Origin: Acidobacteriota bacterium
GTDB taxonomy: Bacteria; Acidobacteriota; CAIWXX01
Direction: 5' to 3'
Length of the DNA stretch: 64,000 nt
NCBI GenBank assembly: GCA_040755995.1
Contig: JBFMAF010000049.1
Span: 96,001 to 160,000 of the forward strand
Positions 3,690 through 64,000 of the stretch are shown in pieces (the first letter of the stretch is position 1; the number at the start of each line of letters is the position of its first letter). The translations under genes and the position numbers were made by a program. The notes below the pieces were generated by a model that had not been told where the DNA came from, ran no database searches, and was given only the letters and a program-made list of their open reading frames with translations.

Positions 3690-3983
3690 TTAGTACGTGC
3701 GCTCGTAGATGCGCCTGAGCTCTTCAGGAGACTGCACAGCCTCGATTGCGGCGTGCACAGTCTCCAGTACGGCCGAATCGGTGATCTTGCTGATCTCCGG
3801 GAAAAGCCGCAAGCCGTCCATGCCGAAACGCAGTTTCAACGCCAGCTCGATTCCGCGTAGCAAACCCTGGCGTACTCCGCGGGCAATGCCTTGTTCCAGG
3901 CCCTGCTCCAAGCCCTGCTCCAGGCCCTGTTCCCGGCCCTGCCTCCGGCCCTGCTCGACCCACTCTTGTGCCAATGTCGACAT
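3690..3983 (-). CDS. Putative in-frame intragenic small antitoxin (RpnS-like, 97 aa)
   Basis: AAAGGAGGTGAGATC-ATG strong Shine-Dalgarno in frame at MSTLAQEW. Confidence 0.65.
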   Translation of the reverse strand: MSTLAQEWVEQGRRQGREQGLEQGLEQGLEQGIARGVRQGLLRGIELALKLRFGMDGLRLFPEISKITDSAVLETVHAAIEAVQSPEELRRIYERTY

Positions 3984-4715
3984 GATCTCACCTCCTTTGT
4001 CCTTGAACGCCTCTGTAAGGGCGGCTCGTACACTGTCCGCGTCAACCTGCCCCGCCGTTGTAACGAAATACCGCAACACAACTTCGATGTACTCGATGCC
4101 GGTCCTGCTCTCCGCGAGCCCACTCATGATCCGCAAGAGCTCAGCAAGGCGATCGGCATAGTCGTCGCGAAACACATGCTTCATCATCAACAAGGCGACG
4201 CGCAGCATCATGTCCACTCGGACCTTCTCGGGATCGAAATCCGCCAGGTCGCATAGCCAGTATGTGTACTCAGGGATGAACTGCGCCATCTCGCGTGGCG
4301 GGTCGATGATCGCCCGGAAACCGGCGGGCACGGTCCATCGTGCCCTGCCATGGTAAAGAACCACGGGCACTATCGGGCTCAGCCCCTCACCTTGCTTCAG
4401 GGAGTACTCCCATATCCTCACCATGTAGCGGAGCAGTTGGAAGGCGACCATGGCCTCCGGCTGGCTCTTGTGCTCCAGCAACACATACACGTACGCAGGC
4501 CGAGCGTTTGTGAGCCTGACCTTGTAGAGGATATCGGAGAAGTGCTCCCTGAGCGCCTGGTCGACGAATGAGTCCTTGACCAGCTCCATCGAGTCCACGT
4601 CGACCAGGGCGGCCACCCCCGCGGGCAGGAATTCTCGCAGGAAGTCGGACGCGGTCTCGCGGCGTGAGAATACCTCCTTGAAGAAGTGATCGTGCGGATT
4701 CTGCAGATCGGCCAT
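3690..4715 (-). CDS. Rpn/YhgA-like recombination-promoting nuclease (PD-(D/E)XK)
   Basis: NPHDHFFK, SDILY, YVLLEHKS, PVVLYHG, C-terminal EQG repeats. Confidence 0.93.
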   Translation of the reverse strand: MADLQNPHDHFFKEVFSRRETASDFLREFLPAGVAALVDVDSMELVKDSFVDQALREHFSDILYKVRLTNARPAYVYVLLEHKSQPEAMVAFQLLRYMVRIWEYSLKQGEGLSPIVPVVLYHGRARWTVPAGFRAIIDPPREMAQFIPEYTYWLCDLADFDPEKVRVDMMLRVALLMMKHVFRDDYADRLAELLRIMSGLAESRTGIEYIEVVLRYFVTTAGQVDADSVRAALTEAFKDKGGEIMSTLAQEWVEQGRRQGREQGLEQGLEQGLEQGIARGVRQGLLRGIELALKLRFGMDGLRLFPEISKITDSAVLETVHAAIEAVQSPEELRRIYERTY

Positions 4716-34015: not shown

Positions 34016-34163
34016 CACGGCCTCATCCCAAGGATCATAGATGAAGACCCGCACGAGGGCAAGAAACCGGACGTGAAGGCGCGGAAGCGAACGGCAGGCT
34101 GACAAGGATCCGTTCACGCTAACGTCGACGTACACGAACGGACGGCGAATGCCTCCGGATCGC

Positions 34164-34230
34164 CGATACAGCGCCTCATACACTGCGCCTACTCTTCGAA
34201 TCTGTTGTGGACTGATGACGCGCTGTATAG
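34164..34230 (+). mobile_element. 67-bp miniature inverted-repeat element, copy C
   Basis: ATACAGCGCCTCAT...ATGACGCGCTGTAT. Confidence 0.8.
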
Positions 34231-51791: not shown

Positions 51792-51820
51792 TTGACATTA
51801 TCATAGTCGGCTGGTATGGT
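51792..51820 (+). promoter_or_regulatory. sigma70-type promoter upstream of the nos supercluster
   Basis: TTGACA-17-TATGGT with TGn. Confidence 0.6.
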
Positions 51821-51863: not shown

Positions 51864-51879
51864 TTGGTACGGCATTTGC
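51864..51879 (+). promoter_or_regulatory. sigma54 (-24/-12) promoter
   Basis: TTGGTACG-GCAT-TTGC matches YTGGYACG-N4-TTGC. Confidence 0.75.
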
Positions 51880-51939
51880 CTGTTGTCGGATCGCGATCGG
51901 CTGTGCGTCATCACCACGGTCTCGTCGCTGAGATCGATC

Positions 51940-53862
51940 ATGCGCCTCTATAGAGCTGAGATTCCTGACTGCAAGTACTGGCAGAAGCGCGTGCTCTGCC
52001 AGGTGGGCTGCCCCGTGTCGACCGATGCCGGCCGATACGTACAGCTCATCGCCGAAGGCCGCATCAAGGATGCGTATCTGACGGCGCGCTCGCCGAATCC
52101 GCTGGCCTCAGTCTGCGGCCGCGTGTGCGCCGCACCGTGCGAAGACCGCTGCCGGCGGGGATTCATCGACGCGCCGATCTCGATCCGCGCCCTCAAACGA
52201 TTCCTGTGCGAGCGCTACGGGGCGGAGAGCAGCCGGCCGGACACCGTGAACGAGCTGTTCGGAAACGCTTACGAGCCTGGCAACAAGTATCCCTGGCACA
52301 TACCGCTGATGACTCGATCCGGCAGCGGCCGCCGCGTAGCCGTCATCGGCGCAGGGCCGGCCGGCCTGGCCTGCGCCCACGATCTTGCGCTGATGGGCTA
52401 CAAGGTCACGCTCTTCGAATCGGCCGAGACGCTCGGCGGCATGCTCCGTCTCGGCATCCCCGAGTACCGGCTGCCGCGATCCGTCATCGAGATGGAGATC
52501 GCCGAGATCGTGGCGCTCGGCGTCGAGCTCAAGACGTCTCACCCGGTCGGCCCGGACTTCGGCCTGGCCGCCCTCCGCCGCGCCGGACATGAGGCGGTTT
52601 TCATCGGAGTCGGTGTCCAGCGCGGGCGCGGTTTGAGCGTCCCGGGTGTCGAGCTCGACGGCGTCGTCAAGGCCATCGACTTCCTTCTCAATGTCAATCG
52701 CGGCTATCGGATGAGGTTGGGATCGAAGGTCCTGGTGATCGGCGGCGGCTTCGTCGCATTCGATGCGGCCCGCATGGCGCTGCGCGAGATCTCGCTCGAA
52801 GACGCCGGCCAGGGCCTCTCGGGCGGCGGCGACCTCGCCGCAGCTCTCGACTCCGCCCGCGTAGCGCTCCGCACCGGCGCCGGCGAAGTGCACATGGCCT
52901 CGCTCGAGGCCTTTGACGAAATGCCCGTCATGAAAACCTTCCAGGGGAAGGACGAATTCGAACAGGCGACTCGCGAGGGTATAACATTCCACCCGAGACG
53001 GGGCCCGCTGCGTTTCGAGGGCGATCGCGTGATCCGGCGCGCCGTGCTGCAACGCGTCACACGCGTGTTCGACGAGACCGGGAGATTCAGCCCCGAATAC
53101 GACCCGCGCGAGACCGAGACCTTCGAGGTCGACGCCGTCATTCTGGCGATTGGACAGATGGCCGACCTCTCGTTCATCCGTCCGGAGGACGGCATCGCGC
53201 TGACGGCCGGCGGCACCATTAAGGTCGATGCCGGCAGCATGGCCACCTCGGCTCCGGGGATCTACGCCGGGGGCGACGTGGCCTTCGGTCCGAGGATCCT
53301 CATCGACGCGGTCGCCAACGGCAAGCGGGCCGCACAGTCGATCAGGGAATACCTGGATCCGGGCGCGCCGAGAATCGACGTGATGTTCAGGATCGAGCAG
53401 CTCCAGACGAGCACCTACAGGATGCCCGAGGAGTATGAGATCGCGGAGCGATCGGCTCCGCCGTCGCTCCCACTCGACCGCCGCACCGGGATCTCCGAGG
53501 TGGAGCTCGGCTATGGCGAGGCCGAGGCGAAGCGGCAGGCTGAGCGATGCCTGACATGCCACGTGAACACGATCTACGACGCCGAGAAGTGCGTCCTCTG
53601 CAACCGCTGCGTCGACATCTGTCCGGAGGACTGCTTGAAGCTGGTCCCGCTCTCGAAGGTGGAGCTCCAGTCTGAGCTCGAGCCGGAGATTCTGGAGAGC
53701 TATGCGCTGGCCGAGGGCGAGACGGCCAGCGTGATGCTGAAGGACGATACCAGGTGCATCCGCTGCGGGCTGTGCGCGATACGGTGCCCGACGAGTGCCT
53801 GGACAATGGAGAGGATGTACTTCGAGGAGAAGGCCCGTCCGGTGACGGCGAAGGAGGCTTAG
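51940..53862 (+). CDS. GltD/NfnB/DsrL-like FAD- and NAD(P)H-binding oxidoreductase with N-terminal Fe-S and C-terminal 2x[4Fe-4S] domains
   Basis: CQVGCP, CGRVCAAPCEDRC, GAGPAG, GIPEYRLP, GGGFVAFD, RCLTC, CVLCNRCVDICP, CIRCGLCAIRCP. Confidence 0.92.
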   Translation: MRLYRAEIPDCKYWQKRVLCQVGCPVSTDAGRYVQLIAEGRIKDAYLTARSPNPLASVCGRVCAAPCEDRCRRGFIDAPISIRALKRFLCERYGAESSRPDTVNELFGNAYEPGNKYPWHIPLMTRSGSGRRVAVIGAGPAGLACAHDLALMGYKVTLFESAETLGGMLRLGIPEYRLPRSVIEMEIAEIVALGVELKTSHPVGPDFGLAALRRAGHEAVFIGVGVQRGRGLSVPGVELDGVVKAIDFLLNVNRGYRMRLGSKVLVIGGGFVAFDAARMALREISLEDAGQGLSGGGDLAAALDSARVALRTGAGEVHMASLEAFDEMPVMKTFQGKDEFEQATREGITFHPRRGPLRFEGDRVIRRAVLQRVTRVFDETGRFSPEYDPRETETFEVDAVILAIGQMADLSFIRPEDGIALTAGGTIKVDAGSMATSAPGIYAGGDVAFGPRILIDAVANGKRAAQSIREYLDPGAPRIDVMFRIEQLQTSTYRMPEEYEIAERSAPPSLPLDRRTGISEVELGYGEAEAKRQAERCLTCHVNTIYDAEKCVLCNRCVDICPEDCLKLVPLSKVELQSELEPEILESYALAEGETASVMLKDDTRCIRCGLCAIRCPTSAWTMERMYFEEKARPVTAKEA

Positions 53863-53864
53863 AG

Positions 53865-54380
53865 GTGGGGACAGGAGGAACTGAAACGGTCAGCCGCCGG
53901 GGTTTCCTCGGGAAAGCGGCGGTGGCGGCGGTTGCCGGAGGAATTCTGGCCCAGGGCATGTACTACCTGCGCGCGCTTGTGCCGAACGTGCTCTACGAGC
54001 GCCCACTGCGGTCCAAGGTCGGCCCTCCCGATCAGTTCGCAGATGGGACGACGTTTGTCGAGGAGCAGCAGGTGTTCGTGGTGAAGGAGGGCCGCTCGTT
54101 CTACGCGATGTCCGCCGTCTGCACGCACCTCGGATGCACCGTCAAGGCGGTGACACTGAACCAGCCGAAATTCATCGACGAGGCGGGTAAGCGAGTAGAG
54201 ATCAGGAGTGAATTCCACTGCCCGTGCCACGGCTCCAGATTCTACGGCGACGGGCGGAACTACGCCGGCCCGGCCCCCCGCCCGCTCGACCGCTTCAAGA
54301 TCACGCGTTCCCCGGACGATGGACAGCTGATCGTGGACCAGGGCGAGCGTGTCGGTGCCGACTACCGGTTGACGGTGTGA
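53865..54380 (+). CDS. Rieske [2Fe-2S] protein with Tat anchor
   Basis: SRRGFL, CTHLGC, CPCHGS; AAGGAGG before GTG. Confidence 0.95.
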   Translation: MGTGGTETVSRRGFLGKAAVAAVAGGILAQGMYYLRALVPNVLYERPLRSKVGPPDQFADGTTFVEEQQVFVVKEGRSFYAMSAVCTHLGCTVKAVTLNQPKFIDEAGKRVEIRSEFHCPCHGSRFYGDGRNYAGPAPRPLDRFKITRSPDDGQLIVDQGERVGADYRLTV

Positions 54381-54458
54381 GCGTGAGGACCAGGGTGCGA
54401 AAGCGGCCGTAATCCGGCGGGTCACAAACGACCGGCGATCCACCTGCAAAGGAACGAT

Positions 54459-55781
54459 ATGGCAAGAAGCATTGCGGAGCGTTTCAAGGCGATGTGGCGG
54501 CAATCCACGTGGACGTGGCAGCCGCGGAGCGAGCGCGAGGCGGGAGACGCCGTCGTCCGAAATCTTCTCCTTCATTGGTTCCCGTCCAAGGTCCATCGCA
54601 TGTCGATCGCGTGGAGCACCTCGATGTACCTGGGCGTCATCTCGGCCTACCTCTTCCTTATCCTCATTCTGACCGGGCTGGGTCTCATGTTTCTGTACGT
54701 CCCCTCGGTCGAACGGGCCTACGCGTCGGTCAAGGACATCGAATTCGCGGTCTCGTTCGGGACAGTCCTGAGGGGACAGCACCGCATGGCGGCGCATCTC
54801 ATGGTGGCCGTCGTGTTCGTTCACATGGCGCGGGTCTTCTTCACAGGAGCGTACCGGTCGGCCACGGCGGCCAACGGCAATCGGGAGCTCAACTGGATCG
54901 TCGGCGTGTTCATGCTGCTGACCACACTGTTTCTTTCCTTCACCGGCTACCTGCTTCCATGGGACCAGCTGGCGTACTGGGCGATCACCGTCGGCACCAA
55001 CATCGCGCGGGCCGCGCCGCTGCTGGGCGAGCAGATGCGCTACCTGCTGCTCGGCGGAAACACAATCGACCAGAACGCGCTGCTTCGTTTCTACGTCCTG
55101 CACTGCATCTTTCTGCCGGCCGCACTCCTGCTGATGTTCTCGTACCACATGTGGCGGATCCGCAAGGACGGCGGCATGGCCGTCGTGGACCGCCTGGCCG
55201 TGCTCGAGCAGGCGGCGCCTGTGAAGACCAAGTCCTACACGCTGATGGGCATAGCGAAGGGGACGACCGTGCAGGTGGAGACCTCGGTCGTCGACGAGGA
55301 GAAAGACTGCCTGAGCTCCTCGCCGCACCTGTTGAGGAGGCTCGTGGCGGTGTTCGCCGCGACGCTGGCCGTGGTCACGGCCCTGGCGATCTTCGTTCCG
55401 GCGCCGCTCGAGACGCCCGCCGATCCCGGGTTGACGCCGAACCCGGCCAAGGCGCCGTGGTATTTCCTGTGGCTCCAGGAACTGGTCGCCGACACGACGT
55501 TCAAGGTGGGCGGCTTCACCGTCGACGGCGCGCTCGTCGGCGGAATCGTCCTCCCGGGGCTGCTGGTCGCGTTGTTGCTCGTCTGGCCGTACCTCGACCG
55601 CTCGCCCAAGGAGGCAGTGGGCTGTTGGTTCCATTCGACACGTAGTGTGCAGAACATCGTCTTCGCCGTCTCGGTCATCCTGCTTCTTGTCTTCCTGATC
55701 ATCGGCACGTTCATGCGCGGCCCATACTGGAACTTCTACTGGCCCTGGGAGAGCTGGCCCGGGATCCCGGCGAAGATATAG
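54459..55781 (+). CDS. Cytochrome b (b6-like plus fused subunit IV)
   Basis: HRMAAH...HMARVF, GYLLPWDQ, RFYVLH...H, TPNPAKAPWYF. Confidence 0.95.
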   Translation: MARSIAERFKAMWRQSTWTWQPRSEREAGDAVVRNLLLHWFPSKVHRMSIAWSTSMYLGVISAYLFLILILTGLGLMFLYVPSVERAYASVKDIEFAVSFGTVLRGQHRMAAHLMVAVVFVHMARVFFTGAYRSATAANGNRELNWIVGVFMLLTTLFLSFTGYLLPWDQLAYWAITVGTNIARAAPLLGEQMRYLLLGGNTIDQNALLRFYVLHCIFLPAALLLMFSYHMWRIRKDGGMAVVDRLAVLEQAAPVKTKSYTLMGIAKGTTVQVETSVVDEEKDCLSSSPHLLRRLVAVFAATLAVVTALAIFVPAPLETPADPGLTPNPAKAPWYFLWLQELVADTTFKVGGFTVDGALVGGIVLPGLLVALLLVWPYLDRSPKEAVGCWFHSTRSVQNIVFAVSVILLLVFLIIGTFMRGPYWNFYWPWESWPGIPAKI

Positions 55782-55796
55782 GCAGCGAGGACAGGC

Positions 55797-57020
55797 ATGT
55801 TGGACAAGACAGAACTCGAGAAGCTGCGCAGGCGAGATCAGCTGCTGGTGCTCGCAACGGCGCTGGTGTTGTTGGCGCTGACCGTGTTGCCGTATGGGGA
55901 GATCGCAACGGAAGAGTGGCGCCTGGATCAGTCGGATTTCCGCGACGTGGTGCTGGAGAAGTTCGGCCCGGAGCGCGCGGAGGAGGTGCCGAGCGGGATC
56001 CAGCAGATCTGGGTCAAGGAGCTGGGGCGCACAGACCGCTGCGTGACATGCCACTTGGGAGTGGAGTGGAAAGGGCTCGAGACTGCCGACGAACCCTTCC
56101 GCACGCATTCGCAGCGCGTGCTGGCGAAGCACCCGGTGGCCAGGTATGGGTGCACGGTCTGCCACGGAGGGCAGGGATGGGCTACCGGCGCGGACGAGGC
56201 GCACGGCTACACTGAATTCTGGGAAGAACAGTTGTTGTCTGCCTCGACGGCGGAAATGCATCTGATCAAGCAGAAGAGCGCGCTCATCGAGATGCGCTGC
56301 AACATCTGCCACCGCTACGACCGGCAGACCGAAGGGATGCCGTACGTCAACAAGGCCAGGGCGCTGGTCGTCGAAAAGGGCTGCCGCGCGTGCCATCTGA
56401 TCAACGGGCGGGGAGGCGTGCTGGGGCCCGACCTCGCGCACGAAGGCGACAAGCCGGCCGAGCAGTTCGACTATTCACGCCTCGGCGGCACTCCGTCGGT
56501 GTTCGAGTGGCACGTGGCGCACTTCAAGCAGCCGAAGTCCATGTCACCGGACACGATCATGCCCGATTTCCACTTCGGCAGCGAGGAGGCCCAGGCCCTG
56601 ACCATACTGGTCATGAGCTGGCAGCGGACGGATATCCCACTCTCGTTCATGCCCGGCGCGGTGAAGCGAGACGAGCCCACTGCGGAGGAGATCGAGACCG
56701 AGAGGGCGATGACAAGCGGGCCCGGGGCCTGGTTCGTGAAGAACAAGTGCTTTGTCTGCCACGCCGTCACCGTGTTCGGCATTCCGCAGACCACGGGTAT
56801 CGGTCCTGATCTCTCCAACGCCTGGGAGGACGCGCAGAAGCGATTCGGGCGGACGCTCGAAGATTTCCTCATGAAACCATCCGGCACGATGGACGTCGTC
56901 CTTTCGAGGCAGATCATCCTGACCGAGGCACAGAAGAAAGAGGCCATCGCTCTACTCAAGCAGGCATACGATCAGTACCTTCTCAACAAGGCGACGCAGG
57001 AAGGCACTGTCAGCAAGTAG
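55797..57020 (+). CDS. Membrane-anchored pentaheme cytochrome c
   Basis: CVTCH, CTVCH, CNICH, CRACH, CFVCH. Confidence 0.93.
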   Translation: MLDKTELEKLRRRDQLLVLATALVLLALTVLPYGEIATEEWRLDQSDFRDVVLEKFGPERAEEVPSGIQQIWVKELGRTDRCVTCHLGVEWKGLETADEPFRTHSQRVLAKHPVARYGCTVCHGGQGWATGADEAHGYTEFWEEQLLSASTAEMHLIKQKSALIEMRCNICHRYDRQTEGMPYVNKARALVVEKGCRACHLINGRGGVLGPDLAHEGDKPAEQFDYSRLGGTPSVFEWHVAHFKQPKSMSPDTIMPDFHFGSEEAQALTILVMSWQRTDIPLSFMPGAVKRDEPTAEEIETERAMTSGPGAWFVKNKCFVCHAVTVFGIPQTTGIGPDLSNAWEDAQKRFGRTLEDFLMKPSGTMDVVLSRQIILTEAQKKEAIALLKQAYDQYLLNKATQEGTVSK

Positions 57021-57055
57021 CAAACGAAAGAAAACATCATCAGCAAGGAGGTACG

Positions 57056-58909
57056 ATGATCAGAAGACGCACAGGTCTCCTCTGGGGGGCCGTGATTCTC
57101 GGGCTGGCCGCTCTCGTGAGCATTTCGTCATGCGGGAGACCGGAGAGGCGCAAGCCGGCCGCCGCGCGATCCGACGTGGAAGAGGCGGCCCTGAAGACCT
57201 ACGTTCCACCCGGAGACCTCGACGAGTACTACATCTTCTACTCCGGCGGGCACTCGGGCAACGTATACATCGGAGGCCTCCCGTCGATGCGCCACATCTC
57301 GACCATTCCGGTCTTCGCGCCGTATCCGGCGACCGGCTACGGCTTCGACGAGGAGTCCAAGGCGATGCTCGGAAGCTTCACCTGGGGAGATGCGCACCAC
57401 CCGGCCTTGAGCGAGACCAACGGCGACTACGACGGCCGCTGGCTCTTCATCAACGACAACGCCAACAACCGCATCGCGCGGATCGACCTGCGCGACTTCA
57501 AGACCAGGCAGATTTTCGGGCCCATCCCCAACGTGTCCGGTAATCACGGGTCCTCCTTTGTGACGCCGAACACCGAGTACGCGCTCTACGCATCGCGATT
57601 CTCCGTGCCGATACCGAAAGGCACCTACGCGTCGATCAACGACTACGGGACGAAATTCAGCGGTGTGGTCGGCGCTCTGGCCATCGATCCGCAGACCGGT
57701 GCCATGAGCAATGGATGGCAGATCAAAATGCCGCCCTTCGACTTCGACCTGGGCGATGCCGGCAAGGGCGCAAGCGATGGATACGCGTTCTGGACATGCT
57801 ACAACACCGAGCGAGCCACGGGGAAACTCGAGGTGACGGCCTCCCAGCGCGAGCGCGACTACATCGCGATGGTCGACTGGAAGGCCGCCGCCCAGGCGGT
57901 CAAGGACGGGAAGACGAAGGATATCGGCGGAGTCCCGGTGATCGATCCGGCCGAGACCAAGGGGCTCGTGTGGCTGCTGCCTTGCGGCAAGAGCCCGCAC
58001 GGCGTAGATGTGAGCCCCGACGGCAAGTACATCGTCGGAAGCGGCAAGCTGCAGGCGGCCGTGACGGTCTTCAATATCGACAAGATCAAGGTTGCGATCC
58101 AGAACAAGGACTTCGAGGGCGAGGAAGACGGCATCCCGGTGCTCAAGTTCGACGCGATCAAGGACGCCGAGGTAGCAGTCGGCCTGGGACCGCTTCACAC
58201 CCAGTTCGACGACAAGGGCTATGCCTACACCAGCCTCTTCCTCGACAGCGCCGTCAGCAAGTGGAAGCTAGGCACGTGGGAGCCACTCGACAAGGTCAAC
58301 GTCCAGATCAATATCGGTCACCTGCTGGTTGTCGAAGGCGATACGGCCCACCCCGTGGGCAAGTTCTGTATCGCGATGAACAAGCTCTCCCACGGGCAGC
58401 ACCTGAATGTGGGCCCGTCGCAGCCCGAGACCTCGCAGCTCATCGACATCGAAGGCGACAAGATGCGACTGATCTACACCGCGTTCACCGAGCCCGAGCC
58501 CCACTACGCGCAGGCCATCACCGCGACAAGGCTCAAGCCGATCGAGGTCTATCTGAAAGAAGAGTCCAAGAATCCAAACGCGATCTGGGACACCAAGGAC
58601 GCGTCGGTCACGAGGTCCGGGAACAACGTGACGGTGAAGATGGTGGCGGTGCGGAGCAGCTTCGAGCCCACGGCCATCGAGGTCAACCGCGGCGACACAG
58701 TCACGATCTACCTGACCAACATCGAGCAGACCACCGACGAGCTTCACGGGTTCGGTCTCTGCGAGTACAACATCAACGTGGTCATAGATCCCGGCGAGAC
58801 GAAGACCATCAAGTTCGTGGCGAACAAGCCCGGCGTCTACCCGTACTACTGCACCAACTTCTGTTCGGCGTTGCACCAGGAGATGCAGGGGTACTTGCTC
58901 GTCAAGTAG
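57056..58909 (+). CDS. nosZ: Clade II (Sec-dependent) nitrous-oxide reductase, probable lipoprotein
   Basis: SGGHSG, DAHH, GNHG, PHG, GPLH, EPH; CuA CTNFCSALHQEM; ISSC lipobox, no Tat motif. Confidence 0.97.
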   Translation: MIRRRTGLLWGAVILGLAALVSISSCGRPERRKPAAARSDVEEAALKTYVPPGDLDEYYIFYSGGHSGNVYIGGLPSMRHISTIPVFAPYPATGYGFDEESKAMLGSFTWGDAHHPALSETNGDYDGRWLFINDNANNRIARIDLRDFKTRQIFGPIPNVSGNHGSSFVTPNTEYALYASRFSVPIPKGTYASINDYGTKFSGVVGALAIDPQTGAMSNGWQIKMPPFDFDLGDAGKGASDGYAFWTCYNTERATGKLEVTASQRERDYIAMVDWKAAAQAVKDGKTKDIGGVPVIDPAETKGLVWLLPCGKSPHGVDVSPDGKYIVGSGKLQAAVTVFNIDKIKVAIQNKDFEGEEDGIPVLKFDAIKDAEVAVGLGPLHTQFDDKGYAYTSLFLDSAVSKWKLGTWEPLDKVNVQINIGHLLVVEGDTAHPVGKFCIAMNKLSHGQHLNVGPSQPETSQLIDIEGDKMRLIYTAFTEPEPHYAQAITATRLKPIEVYLKEESKNPNAIWDTKDASVTRSGNNVTVKMVAVRSSFEPTAIEVNRGDTVTIYLTNIEQTTDELHGFGLCEYNINVVIDPGETKTIKFVANKPGVYPYYCTNFCSALHQEMQGYLLVK

Positions 58910-58984
58910 AGCCGTCCCTGACGGCGCTCGCGCCCGGAGAGACCCGGGCGCGGGTGCCGGACGGGCACGGCGAAGGAGGACCAG

Positions 58985-59629
58985 ATGCGGCGATTGTTGA
59001 ACCGGGCGAATGCCTTCTTTGACTCGCCGATCGACCTGAGAAGCAGGCTCGTCGTTCTTCTCTCGACGTCGGCGCTGCTCCTGCCTACGTTTCTCTTCCC
59101 GCTGTGGCAGCTGGAGATGTATGCGAACCAATATCCGGACGGACTGCGGTTGTCCATTTACTCATACAAGCTTGCAGCCGGCAATAATGGCAACGACCTG
59201 CGCGAGATCAATACACTCAATCACTACATCGGGATGAGGGCTCTGGAGCCCCAGGACTTTTTCGAGCTCAAGTGGCTGCCCTTTGCGGTAGGGCTGTTTT
59301 TCTTCCTGGGACTGCGCGTCGTGGTGCTCGGCAAGGTTTCCAAGCTGGTGGACCTGTGCGTGCTGTTCGTCTATTTCGGGCTGTTCTCGCTCTGGAGCTT
59401 CGGCTACCGGATGTACGCCTACGGGCACACGCTGGACCCGATGGCGGCGGTCAAGATCCAGCCGTTCACGCCCCCGCTCTTCGGCCACGAGACGCTCGCG
59501 AACTTCGAGGTCTACAGCTTCCCGGGCGTGGCCGCCTACCTGCTCCTCGCTTACCCATTCTGCCTCGGGTTGGCGCTCTTCCTCTCATACCGGACCTTCC
59601 GTTCGGCCGAACGGACAGTCACAATTTGA
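58985..59629 (+). CDS. nosB: NosB-type membrane protein of clade II nos clusters
   Basis: PLW...QYPDGL, INTLNHYIGM, YGHTLDP, PPLFG...NF. Confidence 0.88.
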   Translation: MRRLLNRANAFFDSPIDLRSRLVVLLSTSALLLPTFLFPLWQLEMYANQYPDGLRLSIYSYKLAAGNNGNDLREINTLNHYIGMRALEPQDFFELKWLPFAVGLFFFLGLRVVVLGKVSKLVDLCVLFVYFGLFSLWSFGYRMYAYGHTLDPMAAVKIQPFTPPLFGHETLANFEVYSFPGVAAYLLLAYPFCLGLALFLSYRTFRSAERTVTI

Positions 59630-59703
59630 GGAAGGGGCAACCGAGCAGGCGGAATGTGAGCGCGGTCGAAGCGTCCCGCGGTTGTCGGCGTGGAAGGGTC
59701 GAC

Positions 59704-61074
59704 ATGAGAAGTGGAGAGGTGGTAGCCGGGATCGTGCTGCTTTACTACATATGTAGTAGTCCTGCGCAGCCGGGCGAGATCCGAGTACCGCAGCAGGCGC
59801 CGACGATTCGGCAGGCCCTGGCCATCGCGCAGCCCGGCGACTGCATCCGCGTCCACGGCGGTACTTACGCCGGCAATCTGATCCTGAGCAAGCCGGTCAT
59901 GCTGCATGGCGAGCACCAGCCGGTCATACGCGGCGATGGCGCGGGCTCGGTCGTCACGGTGGATGCGGATGGGTGCACCCTGCGCGGCTTCCTGATCGAA
60001 CGCTCGGGGACGGGGATGGCCCTGAGCGACGCAGGCATCTGCCTCCGGTCCTCGGGCAACACGATTCAGGGCAACCGCATCGAGAACTGCCTCTTCGGGA
60101 TGTATCTCGACCGGGCCGGCTCCAACCGCATCCAGGACAACGATATCCAGGGGATGCGTGAGAGGGAGATCGGCGAGCGAGGCAGCGGGATACACCTCTA
60201 CGACAGCCATAACAACTCGATCGAGGGCAACACAGTGGCCGACGCGCGCGACGGGATCTACTTCGATCACGCCAACTGGAACTGCGTCCGCTGGTGTTCC
60301 TTCACCGCCTCGCGCTACGGCGTCCATTACATGTCATCCGACGACAATACCTTCACAGGAAACCGATTCGCCGGGTGCATGGCCGGAGCCACCATCATGT
60401 TCTCACGGCGGCTGCTCTTCGACGGCAACTGGTTCGTTCAGAACCGCGGTTTCTCTTCGGTTGGGGCGCTGCTCAAGGATTGTTACGACACCACCGCAGT
60501 CAACAATCTCTTCGCAGACAACAGCACCGGCATGCTGCTCGACAACTCCATGAACAACTCCTTCCGCCGCAACGAGATCCTCCGCAACGACGTCGCGCTC
60601 TACCTCTTCAGTGGATCCGACGCCAACGTCTTCGCCGAAAACAATTTCCGAGAAAACCTGAGCCCGATCAGGCTCCTCGGCAAACGGTCCACGACGCGCT
60701 GGTCGGCAGACGGGCGCGGGAACTACTGGAGCGACTACGAGGGGTATGACATGGACGGCGACGGCATCGGAGACGTGCCGCACAAGATTCAGAACGTCTT
60801 CGAATTTCTGGAAAGCGAGCATCCGCCACTGCGGTTCTTCCTGGTCTCCCCGGTGGCCGCCGCGATGAAAGCCGGCGAAGACGCGTTTCCGATGTTCGAG
60901 TTCAGTCGCGAAGTCGACACGGCACCGCTCATGCACCCCGTCGACATCTCCTACGGATCGCGATGGCGGATAGCCGCGGACACGACGCTGCGGCTGCCCG
61001 TGACCGCGGGCCTTGCCGGAATGAGCGTGTGCCTCGCCTTCGCGGCCGGCAGCCGCCGGATTCGACGGCGTTGA
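59704..61074 (+). CDS. nosD: Nitrous oxide reductase maturation protein NosD
   Basis: Beta-helix repeats, RYGVHYM, GNYWSDYEGYD.DGDGIGD. Confidence 0.93.
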   Translation: MRSGEVVAGIVLLYYICSSPAQPGEIRVPQQAPTIRQALAIAQPGDCIRVHGGTYAGNLILSKPVMLHGEHQPVIRGDGAGSVVTVDADGCTLRGFLIERSGTGMALSDAGICLRSSGNTIQGNRIENCLFGMYLDRAGSNRIQDNDIQGMREREIGERGSGIHLYDSHNNSIEGNTVADARDGIYFDHANWNCVRWCSFTASRYGVHYMSSDDNTFTGNRFAGCMAGATIMFSRRLLFDGNWFVQNRGFSSVGALLKDCYDTTAVNNLFADNSTGMLLDNSMNNSFRRNEILRNDVALYLFSGSDANVFAENNFRENLSPIRLLGKRSTTRWSADGRGNYWSDYEGYDMDGDGIGDVPHKIQNVFEFLESEHPPLRFFLVSPVAAAMKAGEDAFPMFEFSREVDTAPLMHPVDISYGSRWRIAADTTLRLPVTAGLAGMSVCLAFAAGSRRIRRR

Positions 61075-61099
61075 TCCCACGATCGGGAGCCGCAGGAGC

Positions 61100-62008
61100 A
61101 TGATCAAGATCGAGCGTTTCTCTAAGGCGTATGGCGACGTCCGCGCAGTCGACGGCCTGACGCTCGCGGTCGAGAAGGGGAGGATCACCGCGCTCCTCGG
61201 CCCCAACGGAAGCGGGAAGTCGACAACGCTCAAGGCAGCCGTGGGACTGGTCAAGCCGTCCTCGGGCCGCATAGTCGTCGACGGGTTCGATGTCGTGACC
61301 GAACGCCAGGCGGCTCTGTCGCGCATCAGCTTCCTGCCGCAGCGCATTCGCTTCCCCGAGTCGCTGAGCGGGCGGGAGGTTCTGCGATTCTACGCGCGCC
61401 TGCGCGGGCTGCCCGGGGACTCCGCGGCGGCAGCCGCCGCTACGACAGGGCTCGACGGCGCCCTCGATCGTCCCGTCGGCGAGTACTCCGGCGGAATGCT
61501 CCAGCGCCTGGGACTGGCGGTTCTCTCGCTGCCGAACGCCCCCGTCCTCCTCCTCGACGAACCGACGGCGGGGCTGGACCCGGCCGGCAGCCGCGCCTTC
61601 CGTGACTGGCTGCAGACCCAGCGCGACGAGGGCAAGACGGTCCTCCTCACCACGCACCGGCTGGAGGACGCCGAGGACCTCGCCGACCAGGTGGCCATCT
61701 TGGTCCGCGGGAAACTCGTTGCAGACATGACACCGGCCGAGGTACGACGGCGCGAGGCCGTCGAGGTGTGGCTCAGGATCATCAACTGGAACGTGCGGTA
61801 CCAGCAGCTTGCGCAGGCGCTCGGCGCCGAGACGCTCTGCGCAGATCCCGGAGGAGACTACGTGTTCGCCGCGCCGGCCGCGCGGGCGGTCGAAATCATG
61901 AACGTGCTGCGTGACGAGGGGGCCGAGATTCTCAGATTCACATCGCGATCCTCCCTCGAGACCTTCTACCACCACATCACGAACGAGGAGCGGTATGAGA
62001 GCAGTTGA
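61100..62008 (+). CDS. nosF: ABC transporter ATP-binding protein NosF
   Basis: GPNGSGKST, YSGGMLQR, LDEPTAGLDP; context. Confidence 0.9.
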   Translation: MIKIERFSKAYGDVRAVDGLTLAVEKGRITALLGPNGSGKSTTLKAAVGLVKPSSGRIVVDGFDVVTERQAALSRISFLPQRIRFPESLSGREVLRFYARLRGLPGDSAAAAAATTGLDGALDRPVGEYSGGMLQRLGLAVLSLPNAPVLLLDEPTAGLDPAGSRAFRDWLQTQRDEGKTVLLTTHRLEDAEDLADQVAILVRGKLVADMTPAEVRRREAVEVWLRIINWNVRYQQLAQALGAETLCADPGGDYVFAAPAARAVEIMNVLRDEGAEILRFTSRSSLETFYHHITNEERYESS

Positions 62009-62498
62009 CAGTTGCCAGTTGTCGGTTGTCAGTTGTCAGTTGGCAGTTGTGAGCCGGCGCCTCGCCGGGGCAAGACGCCTGGTATTCGGCATCGTGCTCG
62101 CCGTATGTGCCTTCGCCGGGGCCTGCGGCGGGAGTGCGCCGCAACCGGATCCCATACGTCCCGCAGAGGACTCCTGTGCGTCGTGCCGGATGCAAATATC
62201 TCAGCCGAAATACGCAGCCGAGATACTGGCGCCGGACGGGCAGTACCTGAAGTTCGACGACATCGGCTGCTTCCGCTTCTACCTGCAGGCCAATTCGAAT
62301 CTACAGAACGCGCCGTGCTGGGTGATGGACTTCGAGAACGGACAATGGGTCGAGGCACGCAAGGCCTACTATGCGATCGACACCAAGGAAGTCACTCCGA
62401 TGGGCTCCAACATCCTAGCCTCCTCCACCTCCGACCGCGCCCGAGCGCAGGCCGCCCGCGTCGTCACGTACGAGGAGATGATGGCCGCGGGCAAGTGA
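61995..62498 (+). CDS. nosL: Copper chaperone lipoprotein NosL (alternative start GTG 62049)
   Basis: AGAC lipobox, CASCRM, KFDDIGC, TPMG. Confidence 0.9.
   Translation: MRAVDSCQLSVVSCQLAVVSRRLAGARRLVFGIVLAVCAFAGACGGSAPQPDPIRPAEDSCASCRMQISQPKYAAEILAPDGQYLKFDDIGCFRFYLQANSNLQNAPCWVMDFENGQWVEARKAYYAIDTKEVTPMGSNILASSTSDRARAQAARVVTYEEMMAAGK
62002..62050 (+). repeat. Seven tandem CAGTTGN heptamers
   Basis: Read directly from the sequence. Confidence 0.9.
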
Positions 62499-62670
62499 GA
62501 ATCGGAGAATCGGAGAATCGGAGAAACGGAGAAGCGGGGAATCGGGGAAACGGAGACACGGAGACGGGGAGAGACGGAGACGGGGAGACGTGGACGGGGA
62601 GATCGGGGAGAAGATGAGCACGGAGCATCGAGCAACCGAAACCGGGAACCGGGAACCGGGAACCGAGAAC
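62496..62670 (+). repeat. Tandem octamer (CGGAGAAT/CGGAGACG-like) array followed by CGGGAAC heptamers
   Basis: Read directly from the sequence. Confidence 0.9.
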
Positions 62671-62675
62671 CATTC

Positions 62676-63506
62676 ATGATGGCACGCGCTGTTTACGTGG
62701 TTGCGGCGCAGGAGTTCGTCGTGCTGCTCCGCACGCGATGGGTCGGTGGGTTCAGTGTGCTGTTTCTCGTTCTGGTGAGCGGCTTCGCCTGGTTCGGCAC
62801 GGCCAACCTAGGCATTGCCGGCATCCAGGACTTCTCGCGCACGACCGTGAGCCTGGTCAATCTCGTTTGCGCTCTGGCGCCGCTGATGGCGCTCCTGATG
62901 GGTGTCTATGGGTTCACGATCGAGCCGGGGTCCGAGGAGCTGTTGTTCAGCCAGCCGGTCAGTCGAGTAGCCATCCTTGTGGGGAAAGCCTTGGGCCTGT
63001 GCGCAACCCTGTGCCTGTCGACGCTGATCGGCTTCTGCGCAGCCGGGGCCGTCGTTTCATATCGAGTGGGGACGGCTGGGTTGGGACGGTACCTGCTGTT
63101 CATCGGATTGACGCTGCTGCTCCAGGCGGCCTTCGTCTCAGTGGCCCTCCTGATATCGAGCTTCTTCCAGCACCGGCTGCGCGCAATCGCCGCCGGGCTC
63201 GGGACTTGGTTCTTCTTTGTCTTCCTCTACGATCTGCTGGTCATCGGCTCGACTCTGGGGCTGAAGGGGCGCCTATTCCAGCAGGCGCTGTTCATTTCCG
63301 TCTTCTTCAATCCCGTCGACCTTGTTCGCGTGAGTCAACTGGTGGCGCTCAACGGGGCGTCCTTCTTCGGGCCCGCAGGCGCCGCCTGGGTCCGCTTCTG
63401 CGGCGGCGATCTGAGCCTGGTGCTTCTGATCGGCGGAGCCGTTCTGCTCTGGACCATCCTCCCGGCCTGGGCCGGCCTGATCGCATATGACCGGCGCGAC
63501 ATGTGA
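62676..63506 (+). CDS. nosY: ABC transporter permease NosY
   Basis: ELLFSQPVSR, LYDLL, NPVDLVR; context. Confidence 0.9.
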   Translation: MMARAVYVVAAQEFVVLLRTRWVGGFSVLFLVLVSGFAWFGTANLGIAGIQDFSRTTVSLVNLVCALAPLMALLMGVYGFTIEPGSEELLFSQPVSRVAILVGKALGLCATLCLSTLIGFCAAGAVVSYRVGTAGLGRYLLFIGLTLLLQAAFVSVALLISSFFQHRLRAIAAGLGTWFFFVFLYDLLVIGSTLGLKGRLFQQALFISVFFNPVDLVRVSQLVALNGASFFGPAGAAWVRFCGGDLSLVLLIGGAVLLWTILPAWAGLIAYDRRDM

Positions 63507-63563
63507 CCCAGGTCACATCTGCCCGCGAAGTCGGTTGACTCGCTTTGGGTTTTTTCCTACACT
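63502..63563 (+). promoter_or_regulatory. CRP/FNR-family box plus sigma70 promoter of purC
   Basis: TGTGA-N6-TCACA at 63502-63517; TTGACT-17-TACACT at 63535-63563. Confidence 0.6.
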
Positions 63564-63614
63564 GTCGCAGGAGAGTTGGGACCATCCCGCGACGCGGGGT
63601 GGTTATTTGCTTTT

Positions 63615-64000
63615 GTGAGTGCTACTACAGTCGTAGAAACGAATCTGGCCGGCGTGCGTCTGTTCCGTCGCGGCAAGGTGCGCGACGTTTACGAGCTGCC
63701 GCCGGACCGGCTGCTCATCGTGGCGACCGACCGCATCTCGGCCTTCGACGCCATTCTTCCCGCGCCGATACCCGACAAGGGCGTCGTGCTGAACCAGCTC
63801 TCGCTGTTCTGGTTCGAGTTGATGCGGGCGATCGTTCCGAATCACGTGGTCGAGAGCGACGCAGACCGTTTCCCGCCGCAACTCGCGCCGTATCGCGAGA
63901 TTCTCCGCGGGCGATCGGTGATCGTGCGCAAGGCCGAGGTCGTGCCGTTCGAGTGCGTGGTGCGCGGTTACCTGAGCGGGTCGGGCTGGAAGGAGTACCG
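63615..64000 (+). CDS. purC: SAICAR synthetase (partial, runs off the window)
   Basis: Manual translation: RGKVRDVY, VATDRISAFD, PDKG, ECVVRGYLSGSGWKEY. Confidence 0.96.
   Translation, partial: MSATTVVETNLAGVRLFRRGKVRDVYELPPDRLLIVATDRISAFDAILPAPIPDKGVVLNQLSLFWFELMRAIVPNHVVESDADRFPPQLAPYREILRGRSVIVRKAEVVPFECVVRGYLSGSGWKEY

Follow-up and report, generated by a model that had tools for sequence, protein, structure and literature searches.

A clade II nitrous oxide reductase operon of an Acidobacteriota bacterium that opens with an NAD(P)-type flavoprotein and a Rieske/cytochrome b module

Clade II respiration of nitrous oxide (N2O) in Wolinella succinogenes reportedly involves NosGH, NosC1/C2 and NosB together with a Rieske/cytochrome bc complex, as set out by Hein et al. 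in 2017, and Sanford et al. are said to have drawn clade II nos clusters with Fe-S (iron-sulfur), Rieske, cy-b and cy-c genes in 2012. Clusters of this clade are defined by a nosB gene that directly follows nosZ and by the lack of nosR (PMC11409646, PMC11096178; here and below, papers given by their PMC number are cited for what their accessible sections state). The legend of Fig. 5 in He et al. 2024 places genes labelled 'Fe-S, S (Rieske), cy-b, cy-c' before a clade II nosZ (PMC11096178), and in the cluster of Luteitalea pratensis, for which N2O consumption was shown experimentally, genes for an SCO protein and an azurin are located upstream of nosZ (PMC13122619). Rieske/cytochrome b complexes with an NAD(P) (nicotinamide adenine dinucleotide (phosphate)) oxidoreductase subunit have been described for Kuenenia stuttgartiensis (Kuste4569-4574 and Kustd1480-1485; PMC12954380). 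Here we describe a nos operon from an Acidobacteriota bacterium (GenBank assembly GCA_040755995.1), which lies in a 64,000-nucleotide (nt) stretch of contig JBFMAF010000049.1 (positions 96,001 to 160,000 of the forward strand), referred to as the window throughout, and to which all coordinates without a locus handle refer. The first gene of this operon encodes an NAD(P)-type Fe-S flavoprotein, which is followed by genes for a Rieske protein, a cytochrome b and a multihaem cytochrome c, and we predict that this module supplies the N2O reductase NosZ with electrons.

The operon comprises ten co-directional genes on the + strand (window 51940-63506), which were delineated from the list of open reading frames (ORFs) and by family profile searches. 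The genes encode, in this order, the flavoprotein, the Rieske protein, cytochrome b, a pentahaem cytochrome c, NosZ, NosB, NosD, NosF, NosL and NosY, and are separated by gaps of 2, 78, 15, 35, 75, 74, 25, -14 and 177 nt. This layout agrees with a first-pass annotation of the stretch, which had listed ten closely spaced co-directional genes of this content and a Rieske start only 2 nt past the flavoprotein stop. Indeed, the flavoprotein gene ends with a TAG at 53860-53862, and the GTG start of the Rieske gene is located at 53865 with a Shine-Dalgarno sequence, GAAGGAGG, just 5′ of the GTG. The start coordinate of 51864 given for the region in that annotation had to be corrected, however, since it does not coincide with an in-frame start codon; the likely start is the ATG at 51940, and the open frame extends further upstream to a TTG at 51883 (ORF 51883-53862).

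The NosZ protein (57056-58909, + strand) matched the model for Sec-dependent N2O reductases, TIGR04246, with 872.5 bits (cut-off 625), and its score of 465.4 bits against the model for the twin-arginine translocation (TAT) type, TIGR04244, was below the cut-off of 625, which supports its earlier assignment to clade II. By inspection, the N-terminus of NosZ, MIRRRTGLLWGAVILGLAALVSISSC, reads as a lipoprotein signal with a lipobox-like ISSC and contains an RRR run, and the TAT-signal model matched the Rieske protein and not NosZ. Starting 75 nt past nosZ, the next gene encodes a NosB-like membrane protein of 214 amino acids (aa) with four hydrophobic segments (58985-59629, + strand), which gave no Pfam or NCBIfam match and which we assigned from a homologue at the same place in nos-linked loci. 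The maturation genes nosD, nosF, nosY and nosL are all present on the same strand. They encode NosD (59704-61074; TIGR04247, 392.8 bits, cut-off 300), a NosF-type ABC ATPase (61100-62008; Pfam ABC_tran) whose gene sits between nosD and nosL, the lipoprotein NosL with the lipobox FAGAC (61995-62498; Pfam NosL), the start of which overlaps the end of nosF by 14 nt, and a NosY-type ABC-2 permease with six hydrophobic segments (62676-63506; Pfam ABC2_membrane_2). The cluster contains no Fer4_5 protein of the NosR/NapH/NosH type, and all four Fer4_5 proteins of the genome are encoded on other contigs, so that the absence of nosR and nosGH-type genes noted before was confirmed for this cluster, NosX not having been searched for.

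When compared to the described systems, the operon shares with Wolinella succinogenes a clade II NosZ, a Rieske/cytochrome b-type quinol oxidase, cytochromes c and NosB, as they are reported from that organism, but it lacks NosG and NosH, its NosZ is devoid of a cytochrome c domain, and its Rieske/b complex is encoded within the nos operon and bears a flavoprotein. The clusters of He et al. 2024 have the Sec-type NosZ, a nosB gene directly downstream, nosDFYL and the lack of nosR in common with the window, and also the genes for an Fe-S protein, a Rieske protein and b- and c-type cytochromes 5′ of nosZ (PMC11096178). Judged from the legend and the text of that publication and not from its drawings, the published 'Fe-S' gene is likely to be the flavoprotein gene described here; it is labelled 'Fe-S' only, and the accessible sections contain nothing on NAD(P) or flavin adenine dinucleotide (FAD), on anammox kinship or on energy coupling. 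Luteitalea pratensis likewise belongs to the Acidobacteriota and possesses a clade II nosZ with nosDFY and neither nirK nor nirS, but carries azurin and SCO genes where the window has the flavoprotein-Rieske-b-c module (PMC13122619).

The flavoprotein (51940-53862, + strand; 640 aa from the likely ATG) is an NfnB/GltD-type NAD(P) Fe-S flavoprotein according to its Pfam domains, its matches in the Protein Data Bank and its predicted fold. The Pfam matches comprise Fer4_20 (PF14691, 65.1 bits) and Pyr_redox_2 (PF07992, 92.8 bits), both above cut-off, as well as Fer4, and the C-terminus consists of a 2x[4Fe-4S] ferredoxin domain. A scan for transmembrane (TM) segments and signal peptides revealed neither. 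The protein was modelled by AlphaFold2 with a mean predicted local distance difference test score (pLDDT) of 87.2 and a predicted template modelling score (pTM) of 0.89. The solved proteins closest to it in sequence and fold comprise NfnA of NfnABC (9n5u), StnC (8oh5), Nfn-ABC (9bov), NfnI-L (5jca), NfnB (4ylf), GltD (6s6s, 2vdc) and dihydropyrimidine dehydrogenase (DPD, 1gt8). The Foldseek matches to this family had E-values from 5.7e-42 to 1e-27, and the probability was 1.00 for 9n5u_A, 8oh5_C, 5jca_L and 6s6s_E. Both glycine-rich dinucleotide-binding motifs are invariant in 47 flavoprotein orthologues, and so are the cysteines C20, C24, C63, C67, C71, C537, C540, C551/554/557/561 and C606/609/612/616, the motifs of which fit two predicted N-terminal and two predicted C-terminal [4Fe-4S] clusters. 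Since every NCBIfam match of the flavoprotein was below its curated cut-off (best NF009410, 396.1 versus 516 bits), the protein is neither GltD nor any named equivalog. It has the two-cluster Fer4_20 domain, the FAD and NAD(P)H Rossmann domains and the fold in common with the NfnB/GltD/DPD family, which includes the bifurcating NfnABC and StnABC, but carries the C-terminal ferredoxin domain as an extra part. Unlike these proteins, it comes without NfnA, GltB or a pyrimidine-binding partner and has membrane Rieske/b proteins as its fixed neighbours.

The second gene, with its GTG start, encodes a Rieske [2Fe-2S] protein (53865-54380, + strand; Pfam Rieske) with a twin-arginine signal/anchor (TIGR01409, 27.1 bits, cut-off 16.7). 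Its cluster boxes CTHLGC and CPCHGS correspond to the CxHxGC/CxCH pattern, and CPCHGS is kept in 51 out of 51 flavoprotein-linked Rieske proteins, whereas the host's own flavoprotein-less Rieske protein has CPCHGG. The cytochrome b (54459-55781, + strand; 440 aa, seven hydrophobic segments; Pfam Cytochrome_B and Cytochrom_B_C) is a b6-type protein fused to a subunit-IV-like part, and its best solved relative is cytochrome b6 (7r0w_I, 2.9e-37). The b-haem ligands H108, H122, H215 and H230 align to the b6 ligands of 7r0w_I and are invariant in 21 out of 21 flavoprotein-linked cytochromes b, as is an extra N-terminal H39 within the motif LH..P..KV. Also invariant in the linked proteins are RKDGG, a b6-type inner-face motif after the second inner-haem ligand, and the stretch PNPAKAPWYF, which we read as an outer-site stretch of the PEWY type, with W-Y kept and Pro in place of Glu. 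The position before the invariant L58-G59, which we take to correspond to Cys35 of b6 and thereby to the haem ci/cn-binding cysteine, is Tyr57 in the window protein and is never a Cys in the 21 linked sequences. H39 was also considered as a marker of linked complexes, which we rejected because the host has the same motif in a cytochrome b that is not linked to a flavoprotein. The fourth gene encodes a membrane-anchored pentahaem cytochrome c (55797-57020, + strand) with five CXXCH motifs and one N-terminal TM segment; five CXXCH motifs are kept in 22 of the 23 homologues from nos-linked loci, and the remaining one is a split ORF.

The arrangement of these first four genes is not restricted to the window. 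Among 40 relatives examined, seven genomes carry nine full-length flavoprotein orthologues of 45-55% identity, and genes for the Rieske protein, cytochrome b and a multihaem cytochrome c come next in order at seven of these nine same-phylum loci. A wider scan of contigs, with one genome per species, yielded 80 loci listed from 1/64 parts, the counts of which represent a sample and not a census. Among the matches listed, 42 of the 48 loci with at least 40% identity adjoin Rieske/cytochrome b genes and six are cut off by the end of their contig, whereas none of the 32 loci with 38% identity or less has Rieske/b neighbours. The taxa among these listed matches are Acidobacteriota, Verrucomicrobiota, Ignavibacteriota, Eisenbacteria, Zixibacteria, Planctomycetales, Kryptoniota, Abyssobacteria, Victivallales and Actinomycetota, with the order flavoprotein, b, Rieske in the Actinomycetota loci. 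The flavoprotein tree comprised 120 rows and was calculated under LG+G4 in a quick search with support from the Shimodaira-Hasegawa-like approximate likelihood ratio test (SH-aLRT) only; it was rooted on a Firmicutes paralogue and excluded paralogues longer than 800 aa as well as loci with a best flavoprotein match shorter than 400-450 aa. In this tree, the window flavoprotein belongs to a clade of 92 rows (SH-aLRT 99), 84 of which have Rieske/b/multihaem-c-type neighbours. The clade is made up of 51 rows with Rieske/b only, 22 with nos genes, seven with a molybdoenzyme, four anammox-like rows and eight without such neighbours; six of the latter are cut by contig ends, and the loci L017 and L018 are truly without Rieske/b genes. 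At the loci L044 and L156, the Rieske/b genes are located kilobases away from the flavoprotein gene. The flavoprotein is the fixed first gene of a Rieske/b/multihaem-c module that is inherited as a block. Frames of 1057-1264 aa in four loci of the Planctomycetota sample were considered as fusions with Rieske/b proteins and rejected, as they represent N-terminal extensions with the Rieske/b proteins encoded in other frames. At these four loci, L162:9176-12970, L163:9251-12874, L164:663-3926 and L165:715-3888, the flavoprotein frame carries a putative N-terminal extension of about 450 aa whose only Pfam match is a weak tetratricopeptide repeat (TPR).

The association of this block with nosZ was analyzed in a survey of 401 genomes of the phylum, including that of the window, in which NosZ was called at E <= 1e-50. 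NosZ was found in 41 of the 401 sampled genomes, and the DNA upstream of nosZ was examined for 36 of the 40 other genomes and, for the genome G009, at the locus L013, three fragmentary genomes being left out. The module directly precedes nosZ in 16 of the 41 nosZ-bearing genomes. Twenty genomes encode a NosZ at least 61% identical to that of the window; 16 of these have the module, three have azurin and SCO/CusF, and one contig is too short. At a NosZ identity of 53% or less, the module was present in none of 18 examined loci, several of which lie on short contigs. The full order from the flavoprotein to nosY is found at L013 and, among the matches listed, at L046, L051 (Kryptoniota), L053 (Vicinamibacterales), L054, L058 and L060, the contig of L054 ending in nosZ. 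In a third phylum, represented by a metagenome-assembled genome (MAG) titled Deltaproteobacteria with the origin label Myxococcota, 16 of 401 genomes harbor a flavoprotein orthologue, 15 of them with Rieske/b genes alongside and two with nos genes following. All 22 nos-linked flavoproteins fall into a single clade of 30 rows (SH-aLRT 99), the other eight rows of which are one truncated contig and seven nosZ-less loci. Since the same order recurs in many genomes, it exceeds what chance would produce. The first-pass annotation had proposed a module dedicated to the nos genes, which is supported, and had held that a flavoprotein not conserved beside Rieske/b and nos genes in other genomes would refute its reading. 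This refutation did not occur, since the order recurs before nosZ in 16 of the 41 genomes and in two further phyla.

Three genomes (G029, G145 and G297), whose NosZ is 61-63% identical to that of the window, carry azurin and/or SCO/CusF genes upstream of nosZ and no module; the respective loci are L123:2152-3676, L125:5173-6704 and L126:4577-5980. It looks as if one electron-donor system had been exchanged for another within a single lineage of NosZ. Because genomes with a related NosZ harbor azurin and SCO/CusF in the place of the module, a role of the module as electron donor is suggested. The conservation of the block, the 2-nt junction and the azurin swap together support a private route of electrons from quinol to NosZ, with the flavoprotein fixed to this unit on the cytoplasmic side, where it presumably also binds.

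The module is also found in front of enzymes other than NosZ. It is followed by a molybdopterin subunit of 1143-1283 aa at L047 (Chloracidobacterium), L071 (Abyssobacteria), L157, L158 and L160, and at the first two of these loci the next genes encode an Fe-S subunit and an EB_dh haem subunit. At L152, the module precedes a type II dimethyl sulfoxide (DMSO)-reductase alpha subunit that scored above cut-off with 1123 bits, and at L099 a NapA-like protein. The coordinates of these molybdoenzymes are L047:16007-21547, L071:16214-21790, L152:3771-6533, L157:5896-9354, L158:2766-6617, L160:6013-9498 and L099:16606-19326. The module hence appears to be portable and to serve more than one kind of terminal enzyme. 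Among the genomes of the phylum sampled around a Planctomycetales MAG, 32 of 401 possess a flavoprotein orthologue, and three of five tested genomes gave a full-length match to HZS_alpha, the hydrazine synthase alpha family, with 70-86 bits (cut-off 26.6). Four anammox-like loci in three genomes encode the flavoprotein, a Rieske protein, b6, subunit IV, a hexahaem cytochrome c and an octahaem PF13447 protein. Over the full length, the flavoproteins of these loci share 34-37% identity with that of the window, and they nest within the same 92-row clade with an SH-aLRT of 99, which substantiates the kinship with anammox Rieske/b complexes that had been put forward before. In one hydrazine-synthase-bearing genome, a second, divergent flavoprotein paralogue (L166:1587-3296, 569 aa) with the same domains is located directly 5′ of the module flavoprotein.

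Since the flavoproteins are nested and the loci are composed as described for Kuste4569-4574, our sequence comparison places the anammox complexes as one branch of this module family; the comparison was made with hydrazine-synthase-bearing genomes, the Kuenenia sequences themselves not being aligned. Both the window and the anammox complexes combine an NfnB/GltD-like FAD/Fe-S protein that has no export signal with a Rieske protein and a b6-type cytochrome b that includes a subunit-IV part, and in both a multihaem cytochrome c takes the place of cytochrome f/c1 (PMC12954380). The N-terminal histidine of cytochrome b in the motif LH..P..V is likewise shared with the anammox-like loci. The differences are equally distinct. 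The terminal partner in the window is NosZ and not an octahaem protein resembling hydroxylamine oxidoreductase (HAO), its cytochrome c carries five haems where the anammox proteins carry six or eight, its b6 and subunit IV are fused, and Tyr57 stands where the anammox-like b6 proteins have the haem-ci cysteine (FCLGG). Moreover, the host of the window is no autotroph for which reverse electron flow would be an evident requirement.

The host genome (7.74 Mb, 56 contigs, 99.84% complete) contains no second nosZ. Moreover, no copper nitrite reductase (nirK) was found above cut-off in the genome, the sole weak match being the cupredoxin of NosZ itself, no cytochrome cd1 (nirS) was found above cut-off, and with respect to nor, the genome has no second haem-copper oxidase, its single COX1 being located in a COX2-COX1-COX3 set. 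The status of a non-denitrifier suspected for this organism is thus supported by the lack of nirK, nirS and nor in a nearly complete genome. Three NuoH and five NuoF-like genes are present. Three further loci encode a cytochrome b, none of them beside a flavoprotein paralogue; coordinates of such loci are G000:C46 (L108:6493-15178) and G000:C40 (L109:5167-7992). One of the three comprises a 1060-aa fusion of cytochrome b and multihaem c beside NrfD-like, 4Fe-4S and c7-type genes, another a lone b6-like gene with an LH..P motif adjoining a multihaem/TPR protein, and the third a Rieske-b-multihaem c set that includes the CPCHGG Rieske protein mentioned above. Queries for quinone markers across the whole genome gave no match for PF02621 (futalosine pathway) and, for MenB (TIGR01929), 157.9 bits at best against a cut-off of 342.7, the hits being sub-threshold paralogues. 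Neither marker was thus found above cut-off in a genome that is nearly complete and encodes many quinone-dependent complexes.

Based on sequence, we predict that NosZ is supplied with electrons from quinol by a private Rieske/b6-type/pentahaem-c complex, the route running from the Rieske cluster and the outer site of cytochrome b through the anchored pentahaem cytochrome c to periplasmic NosZ. The flavoprotein, a cytoplasmic protein, is likely attached to cytochrome b from the cytoplasmic side, which would connect the b-haem branch with NAD(P)(H). The direction of this coupling may be a bifurcation of quinol, in which one electron would be transferred to N2O and one to NAD(P)+, a scheme that we favor over the opposite direction and consider quite possible, if slightly short of probable. 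The flavoprotein, the Rieske protein, cytochrome b and the pentahaem cytochrome c would then form one complex. Upon oxidation of quinol at the outer site, the first electron would pass via the Rieske cluster to the five haems of the cytochrome c, which would reduce NosZ for the conversion of N2O to N2. The second, low-potential electron would cross the membrane via the two b haems and, instead of reducing a quinone at the inner site, would exit via the four Fe-S clusters to FAD and NAD(P)+, so that two quinols would give one N2 and one NAD(P)H. In PMC12954380, the same scheme for the anammox complexes is attributed to Kartal et al., the NAD(P) oxidoreductase is treated as part of the complex, and a continuous cofactor chain is modelled. 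According to the same source, Ser-bearing anammox Rieske proteins have potentials of +303 and +335 mV, which are argued to allow b haems low enough to reduce NAD(P)+ with an Fe-S path to FAD, and an AlphaFold 3 model predicts that His43/His62 ligate an extra haem b facing the flavoprotein (PMC12954380). The position of H39 in the window protein is comparable to that of these histidines. Bifurcation is further favored because the Ser-type Rieske protein is universal in the 51 linked complexes, and the three NuoH and five NuoF-like genes of the host also count in its favor, since another NADH dehydrogenase would not be needed. N2O, substrates of the nitrate/chlorate type and nitrite are high-potential acceptors of the enzyme families found downstream of the module, and bifurcation gains support from the fact that the nameable downstream enzymes belong to families known for such acceptors.

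Several points weigh against bifurcation. The characterized relatives GltD and DPD take NAD(P)H as donor, and the host is probably an organotroph, to which NAD(P)H made from quinol would be of little evident use. The thermodynamics presuppose a low-potential quinone, and the quinone markers gave no match above cut-off. The Rieske protein of the window has a Phe instead of a Tyr two residues past the Ser, and two of the four anammox-like Rieske proteins are without the Ser. The H39 motif is not specific to flavoprotein-linked complexes, and the inner face of cytochrome b differs from that of the anammox-like b6 in the lack of the haem-ci cysteine. Likewise, the candidate promoter and terminator of the operon are consensus matches, the regional counts of which are not above those of shuffled sequences. 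Part of this evidence would fit an electron flow in the opposite direction, from NAD(P)H via the Fe-S clusters of the flavoprotein and the inner b haem to a quinone at the inner site, with the resulting quinol being oxidized via the Rieske protein and the pentahaem cytochrome c to NosZ. Every step of such a path would be downhill, the nearest families (GltD, DPD and the NADPH side of Nfn) receive electrons from NAD(P)H, the invariant RKDGG suggests a conserved inner site, and the host appears to be organotrophic. A precedent exists in the ferredoxin:NADP+ reductase on the stromal side of b6f, which has been proposed to act in cyclic electron flow. However, the genome already has three complex-I-type NuoH genes, the Ser-type signature present in all 51 linked Rieske proteins has no obvious need in a simple input device, and the Cys ligand of haem ci, thought to serve stromal input in b6f, is absent from the window cytochrome b. 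We regard input from NAD(P)H, the main rival, as rather unlikely, and with it the corollary, about as doubtful, that the operon is a compact NAD(P)H-to-N2O chain.

The flavoprotein might also be co-transcribed with the complex and not be a subunit of it, for example as a soluble NAD(P)H reductase for a thiol, a copper chaperone or a maturation factor, or as a redox sensor. The lack of a membrane segment in the flavoprotein would be in line with this, as would the loci L017 and L018, at which it occurs without adjacent Rieske/b genes, and L044 and L156 with their distant ones. On the other hand, the flavoprotein tracks the Rieske/b/c genes and not NosZ, with the same neighbours regardless of whether NosZ, a molybdoenzyme, an HAO-like protein or nothing follows. 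Since these neighbours are kept whatever the downstream enzyme, a maturation role specific to NosZ is unlikely. The 2-nt junction with the Rieske gene and the treatment of the anammox homologue as a complex subunit (PMC12954380) point in the same direction, and we hold a separate role of the flavoprotein to be improbable. It is more improbable still, to a degree that we would hardly expect it, that a general respiratory Rieske/b/c complex merely adjoins the nos genes and that NosZ is fed by another donor. Such an arrangement could be suspected from the three other cytochrome b loci of the genome and from the occurrence of the module alone, with no adjacent terminal enzyme, in most genomes, but the gaps between the cytochrome c gene and nosZ (35 nt) and between nosZ and nosB (75 nt) are short and no + strand promoter-like site was found within the operon. 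Furthermore, the order is kept in 16 of 41 nosZ-bearing genomes and in three phyla, the nos-linked flavoproteins cluster in one clade, and azurin takes the place of the module in module-less genomes.

The boundaries of the operon were inspected by consensus scans. A gap of 374 nt separates it at the 5′ side from a saccharopine dehydrogenase gene and holds the sole + strand promoter-like site before the operon, a sigma-70-like candidate with TTGACA-17-TATGGT and a TG extension (51792-51820, + strand; 10 of 12 consensus matches). The scan for + strand promoter-like sites gave none inside the operon, and the two sites in the region compare to a mean of 2.1 in shuffles. A terminator-like hairpin with 11 pairs, seven of them G-C, and a T-rich tail is located 74 nt 3′ of the nosY stop (63580-63614, + strand); the region has 11 terminator-like sites versus 7.1 in shuffles, and these are matches to a consensus only. 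The hairpin part, 63580-63604, falls inside the purC ORF as called from 63576. As the SAICAR synthetase domain begins at residue 30 of this ORF, the true start of purC is probably downstream of 63576. The ORF 63545-64000 was considered as an eleventh gene and rejected, the actual gene there being purC in another frame, and the ORF 62012-62617 was rejected as an alternative frame without a family match. The remainder of the window comprises housekeeping genes (FtsH, TilS, FabF/H/G, DnaK/J), and, upstream of the operon, genes for a hybrid histidine kinase of 1047 aa with PAS/GAF and receiver domains (31040-34183) and a YhgA-like transposase (Transposase_31; 3690-4715); for neither of the latter two did we see a link to the nos operon.

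The first-pass annotation had also stated that no characterized example of this combination of genes was known. This holds in so far as nothing of the kind has been characterized, but the layout itself is not rare and has been drawn in published nos-cluster figures, as far as the accessible sections tell (PMC11096178). A literature search that did not cover figures and bioRxiv supplements retrieved no paper in which the nos-cluster gene is recognized as encoding an NAD(P) flavoprotein or in which its contribution to the respiration of N2O is discussed. The operon type is common, it is inherited as a block, and its function is a predicted one. More tentatively, and with more doubt than confidence on our side, flavin-tipped Rieske/cytochrome b complexes may constitute a widespread, unrecognized class of quinol-bifurcating enzymes that plug into high-potential periplasmic reductases and recover the redox span as NAD(P)H. 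The reductases in question would be NosZ, enzymes of the type II DMSO-reductase family and the HAO-like proteins of anammox bacteria, and the anammox complexes would then form a specialized branch within this class instead of being peculiar to anammox bacteria.

If this were true, N2O respiration in soil Acidobacteria would regenerate cytoplasmic reductant, which could re-enter the respiratory chain via complex I and raise the energy yield, and bifurcation to NAD(P)+, if shown, would represent a new mode of energy coupling in enzymes of the complex III type. The role of Rieske/b complexes that bear an NAD(P) oxidoreductase has so far been argued for anammox bacteria only, and our tree joins the anammox and the nos-linked versions in one family of many phyla. 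Since one family spans both versions, the question could be addressed in faster-growing organisms with a simple electron acceptor. Acidobacteriota are among the most abundant soil bacteria, and NosZ is, to our knowledge, the only biological sink of N2O. The mechanism bears on the energy that is gained from N2O and hence on the competitiveness for it, since 16 of the 41 nosZ-bearing acidobacterial genomes in our sample encode NosZ behind this module.

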